Assembly: GCF_963676685.1 (NCBI RefSeq)
Contig: NC_092352.1
Span: 40,362,001-40,426,000, forward strand
DNA: 64,000 nucleotides
Source: Mytilus edulis
Taxonomy: Eukaryota
Direction: 5' to 3'
This document shows, piece after piece, positions 6,628 to 63,644 of this stretch. Made by a program: the position numbers and the translations under genes. The notes beneath the pieces are model-generated. The model was not told the origin of the DNA, ran no database searches, and saw only the letters and a program-made list of their open reading frames with translations. Every line of letters begins with the position of its first letter. Position 1 is the first letter of the stretch.

Positions 6628-9789
<3,162 letters not shown>

Positions 9790-12603: not shown

Positions 12604-12712
12604 CGTGGATTATCGGATTTATCCAATCCCGATAGTTAAATTATAAATTTTAAAGTCCTCGCCCAGGCTCGGATAACTATCTCGATTGGATAAATCCGAT
12701 GATCCACTTGTA
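12604..12712. mobile_element. Small foldback/MITE
   Basis: gtggattatcggatttatccaatcccgatagtt is mirrored by aactatctcgattggataaatccgatgatccac. Confidence 0.7.
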
Positions 12713-13413
12713 TCAATTTAATAATCAATATTTATAAAGCAAGACAGAGACATATATATATACATAATCAACTGGTCTAAACATCAACCCAACAATAGAT
12801 CTGTAAATTTGCTTTCGCAAATTTTTTGTTCTTCCCTCGCCGGGATTCGAACCCATGCTACTGAGATATCGTGACACCAAATCGCCTGCACTGTAGCCGC
12901 CCCGCTAGACCACACGACCACCTGGGCTTCACAATAATAAAGTTGTCGGTGGTCGTGTGTTACCTTTCCTCGTCAGTTTTAACTGTAGCCGTCCCGCTAG
13001 ACCACACGACCACCTGGGCTTCAGAATAATAAAGCTTTCGGTGGTCGTGTGTTCCCTTTCCTCGTCAGTTTTAATCTAGCGTCGTACTACAGTACATGAT
13101 ATATAAGGCATGGAGATGATATTGTTACAGATCAGCTCAATTATATATAGTAAAGGATCCTACAAATTAATGCAAGATACAGTCACAGAAAATAATTATA
13201 TACTGACTCAGACGTACAAATATATATATAGGCGATCCGATGGATACATCTGTTGTAGAGTTGTCACTGACTCAGACGTACTTATAAATATAATTATTTT
13301 CTGTGACTGTATATTACATTAATTTGTAGGATCCTTTACTATAGATAATTTAGCTGATCTGTAACAATAACATCTTCATGCCTTATATATCATGTACTGT
13401 AGTACGCCGCTAG

Positions 13414-13464
13414 ATTAAAACTGACGAGGAAAGGTAACACACGACCAGCGAAAGCTCTTTTAAT
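13414..13464 (+). ncRNA. Putative minimal type I hammerhead ribozyme
   Basis: attaaaa-CTGACGA-g...c-GAAA-gc-TC-ttttaat. Stem I is perfectly complementary (13414-13420 with 13458-13464), the core boxes are intact, and stem III is a palindromic AGCT mini-stem (dimer-type). Stem II is weak. Two further copies lie on the minus strand within ~12930-13077. Confidence 0.55.
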
Positions 13465-13468
13465 GAGA

Positions 13469-13563
13469 GCCCAGGTGGTCGTGTGGTCTAGCGGGACGGC
13501 TGCAGTGCAGGCGATTTGGTGTCGCGATATCACAGTAGCATGGGTTCGAATCCCGGCGAGGGA
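13469..13563 (+). ncRNA. tRNA-derived Pol III promoter segment (not a functional tRNA)
   Basis: A-box-like TGGTCGTGTGG and perfect B box GGTTCGAATCC at 13543-13553. Cloverleaf stems do not close. Inverted copy at ~12834-12928. Confidence 0.7.
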
Positions 13564-14467
13564 AGAACCAAAAATTTGCGAAAGCAAATTTACAGATCTA
13601 ACATTGTTGGGTTGATGTTTAGACGAGTTGTATATATACATGTGTATATCTGTCTCTGAGCAAGATATTGGTTGGTAACAAATATAAATATGGACCACTG
13701 AATTCAAATACAATGTAAACAATAAACACTAGCACATCATAGAGTGAGTCTTATTTTGAAAATTTTGAAAGAAAATCTCTGTATTAAAGTCCGTGGAAAT
13801 ACGCGTTTTCCTGTGCAAAGCAAGTTGCCTTTGTCATGGAATAGAAGTTTAGTAAACATTAACTTGAAAGAAGTCTGCTGGAAAACTATTTTAACAGTAT
13901 TTTTTCATGACGCATTGCAGGGTAAGTGTATGTAAAATATGTGTTCCTAAAGGAACAGATATAGCATTGTTTCTAAGTTTCCAAAAGAACTTCTGTTAAG
14001 AAGAAGACGCATCTACCGACAGGTGACAAGAATAATTATAAAATTGATTGGCAGTAACATATTTAAATTAGAGTTATCTCGCTTTAATCACAGTTTACCA
14101 AATGTTCAAACGGGAATAAAATTAGTCTCCAAGATACGATTTAGTATTCACAATTAAATGATACTCGAAACACAATAAATAATTCAGTTATATCTCCACA
14201 TACTAAAATGTGGAAACGTTCAACGCTTTTCCAACATAATTAAATCACAAGAAGCATTCAATATATATATGTAGTGTACGTAATAACATTTTTAAGAAAA
14301 GACTAGTTTCAAAAATCAAGCCTTTTATTTGTTTTTCTGTGTGTACAGTCATATTTGATGCATTTCATGCGAAAAAAACTTCAAACTTTAAGCATTGTCT
14401 GCGTTTCCAAAGATTAATCTAATTTCTGAACCTTCAAAGTACATGTATTGTCTATTTTCTTTTAATA

Positions 14468-18177: not shown

Positions 18178-18503
18178 TTAATGAAATAAAAATATTATTC
18201 TATATTAAAATTCGTAAAAAATGATTTGACTTTAGGAAGTTCTGGAACAATCTAAAAGAAGAGTTACCATATTAGATAATTTTCGTAGACAAAACAAGAG
18301 GCACCAATCCCTTCAAACAACCGAAATGATCTCTGGTGTTTCAGGAGAATGATTAGTTCCAAAAAAATAAAACACGAGACAAAAAAGACTCATATTTAAT
18401 TATTGAATGTATTTATAAACCAACAATCAATTAAAATAATCGGACTTAAAAAAATCAGACCAAAATTTTGTGTACATTCAAATATAAATATGCTTTCAGA
18501 AAT

Positions 18504-21158
18504 ATGAATAACAGAAAAAAAAGTAAACTTTCGGCTAAGGAAATACTTATTAGGAACAGAGAACGAAAAAGGCTTCAGAAAAATGAAACGAGTAGAAAAT
18601 CTTATGGAAAGTTGTACAAGAATAAAGAGAGCGAGACAAAAACATATAGTCAAACGATTAATGCAAGAAAAAAGAGAGAACAAAGGGAGAAATCTAAGAA
18701 AATAAATGAAAGAAAACTGAAAAATAAAATGAATGTCCGTAAACACAGAGGTAAAAAAAATGTAGAACTTTCATCAATGTCACTTGTTGTACCAGAAGGT
18801 TCAAATGTTTTCAAAAACAGAATGGAAAAGGCCAGAGCCCTAAGAAAATTTAAAGAAGGTTTACCAAAATCTCCATCTAAACGATGCGCAGTTATATCGA
18901 CTTATTTGGCCCGCAGATCCCCTCGATCGCCAACAATAGCTAATCTGAAACATTCAGTTTCGCCAGTTGAAATGGCCGTCGTTGCAGATATTCAAGAAAT
19001 AATAAAATCTACAAAATTAAAGCGATCTAAGAATGCACGTTCGGTAATGAATTCTGTTACTGCATCAATCAGCGGGGAAAATTTAGCAAACTCGAGAGGT
19101 AAAATTAAACTGTGTAAAAATTTAGGTTTGCCAGCAAGAAGGGTTGCTGGAGGCCAGCGTATTAGGTCTAGAATTCTTAAAAGTGAATCGTCTGCATGGG
19201 CTCTTACGCAACAGAAAACAAGAAAAGATTCCATTTCAGAAGAAACAAAGAAAACAGTTTATAACTTTTGGCTCTCTGATGGCATATCACACCCGACCGG
19301 CAACAAATCCGATATCAAAAGAGAACGATTGGGACCAAACTTATATACTTCGCATATGACACACGTGCTGGAAAAAACACAAACTGATGCGTATTTAGAT
19401 TTTGTCGCCAAATATCCGGAAATTAAAATTGGACAAAGAGCATTTGAGAAACTTCGACCGTTTTTCGTAAGACCTGCATCTGAAAAAGATAGAAATACAT
19501 GCTGTTGTAGATATCACGTGGAAGCAAACCTTGTTTTCAAAGCATGTATGAAGTTCAGAAAATCGTGTGACAGGGAAACCGATTCGCAAGAAAGTGACTA
19601 TCCCGTATTTGAGAAAATGTCAGACCTTATACATATTACGCTATGTCCAAAAGTAAATGGATTTTATAGAAAAAATTGTCTTGACCGAAAATGTAGCCTT
19701 TGCGGCGTTGGTAATTTCAAACTTTCACCCAACGAATCACAGTCGTCTTCAACTGTTGAATGGCAAAAATATGAATATATAACTGAAAAATCGAAGGGTA
19801 AAAATGTAAGGCGCCGACTGACCCTGATAAAAAAGAAAACTAGCGTAAACGAAATGTTTCTCAATTTAAAAAAGCTTCTCGAAACTTTCCCCGCTCACCA
19901 GCACCGATCAAACTGGCAAAGCAATCAACTTAAAAGTCTTGTTCAGAACTTGCCAGTCAATCATTGCATATGCATCCACGATTATTCGGAAAATTATCGC
20001 TGTGTCGAGAAAGAAGAAATCCAATCCAATTACTTCCAAAGAACTGAATGCAGCATTCATGTAACCGTCATGCACCGACACGCCATTTTAGAATACGATG
20101 GTATAGACAGTACAGAAGAATTTCCGGAAATAATTACGGAACATTTTTTCGTAATTTCCCCGGACCTGCAACATGATAATGATTTTACAAAATATGTCCA
20201 AAAGAAAGTTAAGGAATATTTAGATTCAATATCATACACAGTTGATCATATGCATGAATTCACAGACGGTTGTTCTAGCCAATATAAATCGCGGCACTGT
20301 TTAGGAAGTTTATCTACTGCCATCCCTGATTTGGGATATAAAACATTCCATAGAAATTTCTTTGAAACAAGCCATGCAAAAGGGCCTCAAGATGCCGCGG
20401 GGGGATTTATAAAAAGACAGGCGGACATATCTGTTCTACGTGGCAATACAGTGATTCAGAATGCGAAGGATTTATTTACGTTCTGCGAAAGTAGCCTTAA
20501 AAAGCCAAGAAGTGCATTATTTAAAAGAAGGGTATTTCGATATGTGGACTCAATTGATAGACACAATTCCAAAATATTTAAGCCGATCCAGCAAAATAGA
20601 CAAATACATCATGTTTTTACTAGTACATGTAATGAAATCATTGTTTCCGATCTCTCTTGTTACACGTGCGATCAATGCATTTTGGGGAATTATCTTAACT
20701 GTTTAAATGTAGAAAATACCGGGGTAAAGAAAACTATTAAGCCACGCGAAATAACACAAACTTCTAACGAAGAAGAAGTAGCACAAGACACTGACATTCT
20801 TTCAGAAGACATATCAGATTTGGTATCCATAAACTCTGTTGTGGCTGTCAAAACCGACGATGATAACTTTGACTATTATTTAATGAAAATTTCCAAAGGT
20901 TCACACGTATTGAATTCAGCAGAGAGTGACAGCTGGGGTGCTACATATCCCCCTGGATTCGAGGTTTTCCGGGGTCATTATTATGACAAAATCAGTGACA
21001 ATGATCCGTTAAAATATAAACTTTTAAAGACAAAGACTGCTTTGGTACCGACGAAATCTCTGCTATACATACTTGCTGATGTAGATGCCTCTTATCGTAT
21101 AACTATTTCAGAGGACACCCATCTAGACATTCTTTCTGTATTGGACAATTTGGATTGA
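18504..21158 (+). CDS. Putative DDD/E transposase, Sola-like (884 aa from first ATG; the ORF track starts it at a TTG at 18468)
   Basis: Uninterrupted ORF inside the TIRs. Basic N-terminus, Cys clusters (TCCCRYH, CLDRKCSLC, SCYTCDQC), and RNase H-like catalytic motifs IHDYSENY, FTDGCSSQYK and FFETSHAKGPQDAAGG. Superfamily call is from motif recognition only. An upstream exon via tttcag at ~18499 is possible. Confidence 0.8.
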   Translation: MNNRKKSKLSAKEILIRNRERKRLQKNETSRKSYGKLYKNKESETKTYSQTINARKKREQREKSKKINERKLKNKMNVRKHRGKKNVELSSMSLVVPEGSNVFKNRMEKARALRKFKEGLPKSPSKRCAVISTYLARRSPRSPTIANLKHSVSPVEMAVVADIQEIIKSTKLKRSKNARSVMNSVTASISGENLANSRGKIKLCKNLGLPARRVAGGQRIRSRILKSESSAWALTQQKTRKDSISEETKKTVYNFWLSDGISHPTGNKSDIKRERLGPNLYTSHMTHVLEKTQTDAYLDFVAKYPEIKIGQRAFEKLRPFFVRPASEKDRNTCCCRYHVEANLVFKACMKFRKSCDRETDSQESDYPVFEKMSDLIHITLCPKVNGFYRKNCLDRKCSLCGVGNFKLSPNESQSSSTVEWQKYEYITEKSKGKNVRRRLTLIKKKTSVNEMFLNLKKLLETFPAHQHRSNWQSNQLKSLVQNLPVNHCICIHDYSENYRCVEKEEIQSNYFQRTECSIHVTVMHRHAILEYDGIDSTEEFPEIITEHFFVISPDLQHDNDFTKYVQKKVKEYLDSISYTVDHMHEFTDGCSSQYKSRHCLGSLSTAIPDLGYKTFHRNFFETSHAKGPQDAAGGFIKRQADISVLRGNTVIQNAKDLFTFCESSLKKPRSALFKRRVFRYVDSIDRHNSKIFKPIQQNRQIHHVFTSTCNEIIVSDLSCYTCDQCILGNYLNCLNVENTGVKKTIKPREITQTSNEEEVAQDTDILSEDISDLVSINSVVAVKTDDDNFDYYLMKISKGSHVLNSAESDSWGATYPPGFEVFRGHYYDKISDNDPLKYKLLKTKTALVPTKSLLYILADVDASYRITISEDTHLDILSVLDNLD

Positions 21159-21274: not shown

Positions 21275-21456
21275 AATATAATATATATATATATATATAT
21301 ATATAAGTACGTCTGAGTCAGTGACAACCCTACAACAGATGTATCCATCGGATCGCCATCAATGATGGTGATACATGGCTGTGTACATAATGTATATACA
21401 ACTCGTCTAAACATAATGTTTAGACGAGTTGTATATATATATATATATATATATAC
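21275..21456 (-). mobile_element. Short fragment of the hammerhead/tRNA-like unit embedded in (TA)n
   Basis: 21303-21357 is the reverse complement of 13231-13285, and 21399-21414 is the reverse complement of 13615-13630. A 16-bp inverted copy follows, with (TA)n on both sides. Confidence 0.85.
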
Positions 21457-25656: not shown

Positions 25657-28575
<2,919 letters not shown>

Positions 28576-61002: not shown

Positions 61003-61364
61003 TTATACTTCTATAAATAAGTCTCAGATTGTACCTGTCCAAATACAAATAAGAAATGAATTTAACATTCTTAAAAACAAAAGGGGGGGGGGGGACGAAA
61101 TGACCCTCATACAGAGAGGAATGTCACAGTAACATTTTCTCAGTTCTGATATAAAACAAATTATACAAGGTGCAATGTGTAATTAAAGAAAGGCAATTTA
61201 TAGCTGGAAATTTTTGTGTTCAGGAACCGGTTTCAGTTCATTCTTTTTTCTTTTGCAGTACTCATTGAAAGATGTTGACATAACTGTCTATCTTCATCAA
61301 CATATGAAAACTCCTTTAAATTTACACAAAGAATTTTTTATTACAGAAATTAAAGTGAGAAAAT

Positions 61365-63644
61365 ATGGACAAAGACCAGCACCATAACAGCTTAGAACCA
61401 GCAAAGGGAGAAAACAGCTTAGAACCAGCAAAGGGAGAAAACAGCTTAGAACCAGCAAACGGAGAACACAGCTTAGAACCAGCAAAGGGAGAAAACAGCT
61501 TAGAACCAGCAAACGGAGAAAACAGCTTAGAACCAGCAAACGGAGATAACAGCTTAGAACCAGCAAACGGAGAAAACAGCTTAGAACCAGCAAAGGGAGA
61601 AAACAGCTTAGAACCAGCAAACGGAGAAAACAGCTTAGAACCAGCAAACGGAGAAAACAGCTTAGAACCAGCAAAGGGAGAAAACAGCTTAGAATCAGCA
61701 AATAAAGAACAAGAATCTGAAGTTCCAGAAGAGGGTATTTCTCAGACTGACGTAACTTCTGATAAAAATACATCAATCATTTCTACACTGAAGCAAAAGG
61801 ACGGGAAATATCAATGTACAGTTTGCCAAAAGTTTTTTCTAAAACACACAATCAGACGGCATATAAAAAATTTCCATGCTGATGGTAAAACGCATGTTTG
61901 TAGAATTTGTCTGGCAGTTTTTAGTCAAAAGTATGATCTTATAATTCATACAAAAACAGCACATTCAAGACCTCCAAATTACAAATGCAATATTTGTGAC
62001 AAAACTTATATGCACAAGAATTCATTGATTAGACACAAGGAATGCCATTCTGATACAGAATTTCTCTGTAAAATTTGTAATAAAAACTTCAAATCAAGTG
62101 ATAGTCTTAAAAAGCATTGTTCTTCCCATGGAAAAGAGAAAAAATATATATGTAGCGTGTGTGGAAATAAATTCATGGAAAAACATTATTTAAAGATTCA
62201 TATGGCGTCCCATTCAAATGACAAACTTAGGGAATGCACAATATGTAATAGAAAATTTAGTACTATTGCTCAATGTAAAACCCACGAAGAAAAAGTGCAT
62301 GCTGGGAATATTACATTTACGTGTCCAGTCTGTAATAAATTTTATTTTGAATCTTATCAATTAAAAAACCACATGAAAAAACATTCTGTCGCTGAAAAGA
62401 AACCTGGTTATAAATGTGGCACTTGTGGCAAAAGTATAACAACTCGTTGGTCATTGAAAAAACATGAGTTAAGACATTTGGGAGTTGAAAAAATTCGATG
62501 TGATATATGTGACAAAGGTTTTAGTGATAATTATACATTAAAGAAACATAAAAAGTTGATACATACTCTCAACTTCGATTTTAAATGTCAAATTTGCGGC
62601 CAAGGCTTTGTCTGCAAAGAAAAGTATAAACACCATCAAGCAAGGCATCTCAAGATTAGAAAACATCAATGTAATTTCTGCAAGAGAAAGTTTTTGTTAG
62701 AGAGGAGTTGCATTAGTCATATGAAAATAAAACATCAGGATGAATATTTTGCTGGTAAAAAATCATCTCTTCATGAATGTGAATTTTGTGGGAAAAAATT
62801 CTTGTATTTAAAACTTAGAAATGAACACATCAAGCTTCACACTGGACATAGACCCCTTATTTGTCAATTTTGTAATAAATCATATAGAACACAACAGACT
62901 CTTGCACTTCATGAGAAAAGACATACAAATCCATTTGAGTGTGGAATATGCCATGCACAATTTATTCAAAAGCATTTGCTTTTAAAACATTTGAAAAAAC
63001 ATGAAGATACTACTACCAAAGACCATCAACGACAACAGAATATCAGTGTTAAAGAACAAACACAATTTGGTCATGATAATCTACTTAAAATTGAGGCCAA
63101 CAATTCTCATGATCCAATGTATATGGTACACTCAGAAGGAGCAGTGGATGAACAAAGTCAATTTGGAATGAATAGTAAACTGTCCAAAGAAAATCATACA
63201 TCAAAGGAATTAAGATGTAGTAACGATGTGTTACAAATTCAAGGTGGGATTCAACCATCATGTGAGACTCCACTAGCATTGTGGACTGAAGGTCTAAATA
63301 TAGAAGCAGTGAATGATGAGATAAAACCAGAAATCATAAACGAAATTAAGGAGGAAGTAAAAACAATTGAACCAGAGACAAACGATCATCAAATGAAAGA
63401 ACAAAGTACATTTCTTAATCATGGTCAAAGATCAGATACAGGATACTTAAGTACATGTAGTTCTGGGTTCCCTTTGAAAACAGAACACACTTTACAGCAG
63501 AATATAGTAAACCCATTAAATGGTAATGTTGTAACAATGACTAAACTTGGATCAGTGAAGGTGAATACTGAAGATCTTCAGAAAATACTCAATAGGGGAA
63601 ATATTTTGGATATCATAAAATCTCAGACACAAAATGATTTATAA
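61365..63644 (+). CDS. C2H2 zinc-finger protein (14 fingers) with N-terminal 9-aa tandem repeat
   Basis: 759-aa ORF with 14 CxxC...HxxxH/HxxxxH units from YQCTVC to FECGICH. Splice acceptor ttacag at 61345-61346 just upstream of the ATG, so upstream exons are likely. Confidence 0.92.
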   Translation: MDKDQHHNSLEPAKGENSLEPAKGENSLEPANGEHSLEPAKGENSLEPANGENSLEPANGDNSLEPANGENSLEPAKGENSLEPANGENSLEPANGENSLEPAKGENSLESANKEQESEVPEEGISQTDVTSDKNTSIISTLKQKDGKYQCTVCQKFFLKHTIRRHIKNFHADGKTHVCRICLAVFSQKYDLIIHTKTAHSRPPNYKCNICDKTYMHKNSLIRHKECHSDTEFLCKICNKNFKSSDSLKKHCSSHGKEKKYICSVCGNKFMEKHYLKIHMASHSNDKLRECTICNRKFSTIAQCKTHEEKVHAGNITFTCPVCNKFYFESYQLKNHMKKHSVAEKKPGYKCGTCGKSITTRWSLKKHELRHLGVEKIRCDICDKGFSDNYTLKKHKKLIHTLNFDFKCQICGQGFVCKEKYKHHQARHLKIRKHQCNFCKRKFLLERSCISHMKIKHQDEYFAGKKSSLHECEFCGKKFLYLKLRNEHIKLHTGHRPLICQFCNKSYRTQQTLALHEKRHTNPFECGICHAQFIQKHLLLKHLKKHEDTTTKDHQRQQNISVKEQTQFGHDNLLKIEANNSHDPMYMVHSEGAVDEQSQFGMNSKLSKENHTSKELRCSNDVLQIQGGIQPSCETPLALWTEGLNIEAVNDEIKPEIINEIKEEVKTIEPETNDHQMKEQSTFLNHGQRSDTGYLSTCSSGFPLKTEHTLQQNIVNPLNGNVVTMTKLGSVKVNTEDLQKILNRGNILDIIKSQTQNDL
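61386..61709 (+). repeat. Coding minisatellite, 27 bp x 12 (NSLEPA[K/N]GE)
   Basis: aacagcttagaaccagcaaa[g/c]ggagaa repeated in frame. Confidence 0.95.

Follow-up and report, generated by a model that had tools for sequence, protein, structure and literature searches.

A young, abundant tRNA-headed tandem repeat of Mytilus edulis whose hammerhead motif is likely a decaying relic

Does a short repeat of the mussel Mytilus edulis combine a self-cleaving hammerhead ribozyme with its own RNA polymerase III (Pol III) promoter? The question is raised by a locus on contig NC_092352.1 (assembly GCF_963676685.1), within a stretch of 64,000 nucleotides (positions 40,362,001 to 40,426,000 of the forward strand) that was analysed as a whole and is called the window here; coordinates without further label are window positions. 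A first-pass annotation had described a retrozyme-like unit of about 440 nt that would be transcribed from an internal tRNA-like promoter, processed by its own hammerhead and mobilised in trans.

Genomic arrays of the repeat show a period of 441 nt, which equals the 400 nt and the 41-nt linker from which a tandem monomer of about 440 nt had been proposed. In the window, a young copy of subfamily A lies at 13231–13636 on the plus strand and comprises unit positions 1–406; it is 5'-truncated and stops at the main 3' end in a TA run. An older copy of subfamily B (12769–13201, minus strand; unit positions 58–400) stands head-to-head with it and contains a 92-nt duplication (12890–12981/12982–13073, minus strand). 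The B copy has at its 5' end an inverted piece of unit positions 36–62 with a TA run (13202–13230, plus strand), and the A copy begins directly after this TA run. The fragment at 21303–21414, which had been thought to link the end of the unit to its start, indeed does so: it is a short junction-spanning insertion on the minus strand (21296–21414; positions 385–441 and 1–62) ending at the second 3' end in a TA run, with an inverted arm (21416–21437, plus strand; positions 385–406) followed by a TA run. A 902-codon open frame without a Pfam match (18450–21155, plus strand) stops just before this fragment.

The tRNA-like head occupies 13469–13563 (plus strand) beside the hammerhead motif, and both promoter boxes were located in it, the A box TGGTCGTGTGG at 13476–13486 and the B box GGTTCGAATCC at 13543–13553 (both plus strand). 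The head is not a tRNA gene. ARAGORN with default settings reported no tRNA and with relaxed settings a partial one, and the Rfam tRNA model gave no hit at gathering score in the whole window or at E ≤ 10 in 12700–13700. The head may resemble tRNA-Glu; scores against the Gly, Thr, Lys and Met genes retrieved singled out none of these as the tRNA of origin. Long tRNA gene arrays, Thr/Gly with a period of about 727 and Lys/Met, were observed elsewhere in the genome (G000:C7:89.82–89.85 Mb, C10:19.28–19.30 Mb). Pol III starts at internal boxes and is stopped by T-runs. A T-run at 13458–13461 (plus strand), after the predicted cut site and before the head, is a candidate Pol III terminator and forms the loop of the predicted rod described below. 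Given its place just before the tRNA-like head, unit-length RNA could be made by Pol III with no ribozyme involved. At least four T residues between GAAA and the A box were present in 48 of 57 copies; for family C the figure was 63 of 64 matches, which come from overlapping loci.

The minimal type I hammerhead-like motif is present where it had been reported, at 13414–13464 on the plus strand, with C3 at 13421, A9 at 13427, G12 at 13450 and a predicted cut after C13457, which is C17. Helix I (13414–13420/13458–13464) has 7 bp, a length peculiar to this copy and a few others; the core consists of CUGACGA (13421–13427) and GAAA (13450–13453), helix III is the palindrome AGCU, and helix II is weak, consisting of 1 bp and 3 bp with an internal loop between them. 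The motif is not a product of chance, because only 2 of 30,000 dinucleotide shuffles of the unit, scanned on both strands, yielded one as complete. The Rfam search that had been suggested as a check came back empty, with no hammerhead at gathering score in the whole window and none at E ≤ 10 in 12700–13700. A type III hammerhead from the same bases was ruled out by inspection, as no helix I hairpin is possible. Both hammerhead copies within the subfamily-B copy of the window have U17 and a broken helix I.

The repeat forms head-to-tail arrays on many contigs of the 1.37-Gb genome, as the genome search for tandem arrays was expected to reveal. At least 112 unit matches were obtained, mostly 97–99% alike (40 scored of 571 candidates), and a 17-base unit motif had 4,942 matches in the genome while its reversed control had none. 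Some arrays contain at least 20 units (C12/C1600). No open reading frame of 110 aa or more was found inside the A/B arrays of three loci (L093, L094, L096). The 441-nt family is a young, abundant, non-coding tandem repeat, of which no account was found in the literature searched (Repbase/Dfam and subscription journals lay outside the search). At least 90% of the sampled unit words were present in 20 listed sequencing runs with seven organism labels. Subfamily B is older and about 92% alike to the unit. A sister family, designated C, has a 475-nt unit whose shared part is colinear with the 441-nt unit at about 69%, forms young arrays and retains the A and B boxes at about 69% identity. One family C unit is fused in register, at the homologous position, to a unit of family A (L011:1387–1510; G000:C3 near 41,475,990), a joint expected from template switching or recombination between sister families. 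A putative 'family D' (L098) had no close copies, its best matches being 76–81%, and was reassigned to old decayed copies. Such very old decayed relatives of the unit occur in a control stretch (L119, G000:C1 near 50,007,700) and beside a family C array (L098).

The proposal that the hammerhead processes the RNA was not borne out by the other copies. The core together with A9, C17 and a 4-bp helix I was kept in 715 of 4,942 copies; U occupied position 9 in 67 among the first 100 listed copies, and a sample of 57 unselected copies comprised 36 with U9 and 6 with an intact hammerhead. A core conserved across copies, on which the first-pass annotation had staked its reading, is thus largely missing, and the conserved core per unit that is a retrozyme trait holds for the window copy alone and fails in the family. 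In a tree of 49 rows, an 18-row U9 clade was nested in the A9/C17 group (support 97/84), with the shortest branches in the youngest part of the clade; U9 was also present in four older rows. The U9 clade is derived and is the youngest lineage. Further departures were found: subfamily B has U17 and a helix I of 1 bp, array L017 carries G5A in all three units, and family C has CUUCCGU where the core would stand and no hammerhead core. The 3' strand of helix I was the most variable of 426 windows along the unit, with 15 forms at 40 sites. GAAA, the AGCU palindrome and G10.1–C11.1 were kept in most A/B copies, and both C17 and a helix I of 4 bp are found in the youngest lineage. Natural hammerheads with a helix II of 1–2 bp and some core changes exist, position 9 being unnamed in the available text of that account (PMC3088659). 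The literature searched contained no measured effect of A9U. Given the retained 3' half of the core, the C17 and 4-bp helix I of the youngest lineage and the short helix II known from natural hammerheads, some cleavage by dimers could still occur. Judged from the distribution of these changes, the hammerhead is likely a decaying relic whose full function is not required by the family.

A different pairing of the same bases appears to be conserved. The predicted rod (13393–13509, plus strand) pairs an upstream arm and the 3' half of the hammerhead with the 5' half of the head. Its fold has an energy of −59.5 kcal/mol for 13385–13520, with a z score of −3.6 for the inner part, and it buries C17 and the A box, C17 being paired with a probability of 1.0. 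Across 11 diverse rows, two of them from family C, the rod was 86.7% paired, 8 of 37 pairs were changed on both sides, and 0 of 500 shuffles reached as high a covariation; this rod model comes from the window copy, and relatedness among the rows is not taken into account in the shuffle controls. On the same rows the hammerhead helices were 73.8% paired (helix I, 60.6%), with a covariation matched by 61 of 500 shuffles. Across 59 A/B rows the rod was 94% paired, with two-sided changes in 5 of 39 pairs, including that of C17 itself; helix I was 60% paired with zero two-sided changes. On the modelled folds, the conserved feature is the rod, in which the motif is paired with the A box, instead of the hammerhead helices.

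To follow the transcripts, four RNA runs, which match the DNA by species label and not by individual, were mapped to one unit. Run X21 gave 4,715 of 8,710,588 records (541 per million) and run X22 gave 5,978 of 8,252,136 (724 per million), with more than 90% of the first mates on the minus strand in every bin. In most stranded libraries, a first mate on the minus strand indicates plus-strand RNA. The unit junction (441 to 1) was spanned by 601 reads in X21 and 828 in X22, every unit position was covered, including the junction and the hammerhead site, and 9% of the reads continued into unlike sequence. Read starts or ends did not pile up at any unit position in these two runs, the cut site included. 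The RNA of these two runs is abundant, one-stranded and shows no ends. Run X24 was different, with 35 per million on both strands and 66% of reads continuing into unlike sequence. Past position 406, depth on the main strand stayed at 0.73–0.74, compared with 0.31–0.45 on the opposite strand and in X24; the latter values are close to the share of genomic copies that continue past this position, 13 of 45 (21 of 59 by another count). Because the main-strand depth exceeds the share of such genomic copies, the RNA of this strand is a species of its own that spans the whole unit, with no ends visible. It is either a circle or a multimer, which short reads cannot separate, and probably a circle. Depth dipped by about a quarter to a half near the cut site and T-run, never to zero; the dip can be accounted for by the rod and by clipping at five variant bases, and real ends could be present in a minority of molecules. 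U9 was read in 1,412 of 1,609 reads in X21 and in 1,598 of 1,892 in X22 (84–88%). The main RNA haplotype, defined by nine sites, is that of the youngest U9 lineage; it matches dispersed short insertions (L157, L165, L173) and differs from the long C12 array. RNA editing was rejected as the source of A9U, the nine-site haplotype being present in these three genomic copies.

The same reads would be produced without any circle, if a few long arrays gave linear multimers or permuted monomers, which a Penelope reverse transcriptase (RT) copied as multimers or by jumping from end to end, the hammerhead being dead. Arrays long enough for this exist, and the T-run and the 3' strand of helix I differ among the units of 2 of 12 multi-copy loci, with a partial dip of depth at this spot. 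However, these two features are uniform in the other 10 of the 12 loci, and the main haplotype fits the dispersed short insertions and not the C12 array. A T7 run is expected to end Pol III transcription, and the one present in the main RNA lineage should stop read-through along an array. We consider such a linear origin distinctly unlikely.

A working retrozyme with an internal Pol III promoter would account for the RNA in another way: the hammerhead, also in its U9 form, would cut as a dimer while transcription is still short of the blocking arm, a host ligase would close the monomer, and the rod would then stop re-cutting. Consistent with this are a motif far above chance, the retention of GAAA, the palindrome and G10.1–C11.1 in most A/B copies, the appearance of C17 and the 4-bp helix I in younger lineages, and the exact unit sequence at the cut site of the endless RNA. 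Blocked hammerheads in circles are also described for some mussel and plant retrozymes in the available part of one report (PMC7229834). Against it stand A9U in most of the RNA and of the listed copies, U17 with a 1-bp helix I in subfamily B, G5A in the three units of L017, the extreme variability of the 3' strand of helix I, and a family C without a core. On this evidence a working retrozyme of this kind is unlikely, and we retain the reading of the hammerhead as a likely relic.

The manner of insertion was examined on 40 stretches at motif matches of contig C1, namely the first 38 listed and two later arrays. Of 55 3' ends, 35 fell at two sites, 26 near position 406 and 9 near position 60, both of which are internal TATA motifs, and the 55 5' ends were scattered over positions 5–410. 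At least five TA repeats followed 25 of 38 terminal copies, compared with 3 of 90 control TATATA sites. The arrays contain non-integer numbers of units, often with an inverted truncated arm, and the units within one array are near-identical. Divergence was 0.025 within and 0.047 between arrays, figures blurred by one mis-cut array (L013) and one array counted twice (L056/L112), and because of this blurring the uniformity of arrays is argued only from private shared variants. Near-identical units would also be left by satellite-like amplification at the DNA level, with the RNA arising by read-through; the fixed 3' ends, the targeting of TA, the scattered 5' ends, the inverted arms and the one-stranded RNA contradict this, and we regard it as very improbable.

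Elements encoding an RT with a C-terminal GIY-YIG domain were found in the fetched flanks of 8 of 83 sites and in 1 of 60 control tiles (p=0.051), a comparison biased toward the matches because these loci were the source of the three query proteins. At seven of these eight sites the element adjoins the array, with a TA run or TTATA between the two. The Penelope-like elements (PLEs) adjoining arrays belong to several families and have their own (TA)n ends and minimal hammerheads. No 3' tail common to the unit and the neighbouring PLEs was significant (best p 0.02 among 20 tests on 5 PLE ends); the unit shares only a short TYAGAC motif with two of the five. Because of the insertion footprint and the shared targets, the 441-nt family is likely mobilised by a Penelope-type enzyme. 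The part of the first-pass annotation that concerned mobilisation in trans is therefore supported by the footprint, and linkage to RT/GIY-YIG genes stays at the borderline value given above. Young PLEs were recorded at five loci (L095:3061–5950; L093:6473–9400; L094:7218–8530; L091; L092). [quoted passage not shown]

On balance, it is moderately probable that the locus belongs to a young tRNA-headed repeat whose RNA, probably circular or multimeric, is copied by a Penelope-type RT/GIY-YIG enzyme into (TA)n, the hammerhead being likely a relic. As the motifs suggest, Pol III would start at the head, read through the unit junction and stop at the next T-run, giving a permuted unit-length RNA. 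This RNA is probably closed into a circle at or beside the T-run and cut site, perhaps by residual or trans cleavage and a host ligase or by joining of the Pol III ends. Its predicted fold into a rod would hide the cut site and the A box and protect the molecule. A PLE would then begin target-primed reverse transcription at TA repeats on one of the two internal TATA sites, and its presumed enzyme, copying round or along the template, would generate the uniform, non-integer arrays of the observed footprint.

More tentatively, the family may be a retrozyme lineage that trades its ribozyme for Pol III, the start at the head and the stop at the T-run defining a monomer that a host ligase closes there or that a minority of intact copies cuts in trans; we rate this rather unlikely. 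The ligation junction would then be the most variable spot of the unit and uniform within each rolling-circle array. The T-run is the most variable spot of the unit. The same hypervariability was not seen in family C, and because of this the placement of the junction at the T-run is weakened. If true, the trade would amount to a way of making abundant small circular RNAs without a ribozyme, from which Penelope enzymes make genomic copies.

The union of a SINE-like promoter with a hammerhead is not new in kind and has already been reported for the Sm-alpha repeat of schistosomes. The accessible description of Sm-alpha and Sj-alpha depicts SINE-like repeats whose tandem units each contain a type I hammerhead together with a Pol III promoter; a full transcript can arise from tandem copies alone, and the ribozyme cleaves in vitro (PMC6765202). 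The 441-nt family is likened to it by architecture and not by sequence, both having A/B boxes or a Pol III promoter beside a hammerhead in tandem, and both needing tandem copies for a full transcript. It differs in its core, which carries changes in most copies as well as in the main RNA and pairs with the A box, and in the Penelope-type insertion footprint, which was demonstrated for the 441-nt family, Sm-alpha being compared from its description.

Animal retrozymes are described, in the parts of the literature available, as short non-coding tandem repeats with a type I hammerhead and abundant structured circular RNA, for which a PLE is the proposed helper (PMC7229834), and they seem to lack promoters (PMC7761336). 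The 441-nt family shares with metazoan non-LTR retrozymes the short non-coding head-to-tail units, a hammerhead-derived motif and an abundant structured RNA, and differs in its length (441/475 nt compared with the published 170–400 nt), its A/B boxes and its degenerate core. The element had been equated with retrozymes reported in Mytilus. The non-LTR retrozyme family described for this genus has a size of 350–390 bp in the available text (PMC7229834), and the present genome contains a separate, canonical 356-nt family that fits this size, with 27,216 motif matches (control, 238), a period of about 355–368, a canonical hammerhead with helices of 6 and 4 bp, and no A/B box. Similarity of the 356-nt retrozyme to the 441-nt unit was not found, and the equation is rejected because of the size and this lack of similarity. 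An example of the 356-nt family was recorded at L148:1501–1910; two loop variants occur genome-wide, and the window contains none.

Non-autonomous PLEs and the Neptune/Naiad layout, as given in the portions of two reports at hand, show 5' truncation, partial tandems, an inverted 5'-truncated arm and (TA)n targets, and PLE hammerheads are minimal, with a palindromic helix III, an extra base after position 9 and a helix II of 6–8 bp (PMC8557442, PMC4209133). All of these traits except the helix II length recur in the 441-nt family, which departs from PLEs in its tRNA-like head, a far shorter helix II and the absence of significant 3' similarity to the five neighbouring ends. A classical tRNA-derived SINE start at the head is also absent: 2 of the 55 scattered 5' ends lie at position 238, and in many copies the sequence continues past the head into the unit before it. 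Helenus TRIMs, which are present in Mytilida, have tRNA-derived LTRs, two LTRs per element, a PBS, a PPT and 4-bp target duplications according to the text available (PMC10886601). The 441-nt family resembles them in having tRNA-derived Pol III boxes inside the repeated unit of a non-autonomous retroelement, and differs in lacking a fixed 5' end and in targeting TA runs.

Two questions are open in animal retrozymes, namely at which point their transcription begins and whether they need the hammerhead or carry it as a passenger. One genome here holds a natural series of forms: intact (A9/C17), core-mutated and most active (U9), cut-site-mutated (subfamily B) and core-less (family C). All four have the same promoter boxes, T-run and rod, and the canonical 356-nt retrozyme is present alongside. 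With about 0.05–0.07% of the reads in two libraries, the RNA is a major unannotated RNA of the animal.

Other features of the window were recorded during the analysis. Inverted copies of tubulin genes, 93% alike, lie at 8461–9786, 25661–26798 and about 26800 (minus strand), and at 7502–7744/27505–27747, and further tubulin-like frames appeared in the open reading frame scan. A 27-nt tandem repeat, encoding a 9-residue repeat, is located at 61303–61783 inside a 761-codon open frame.
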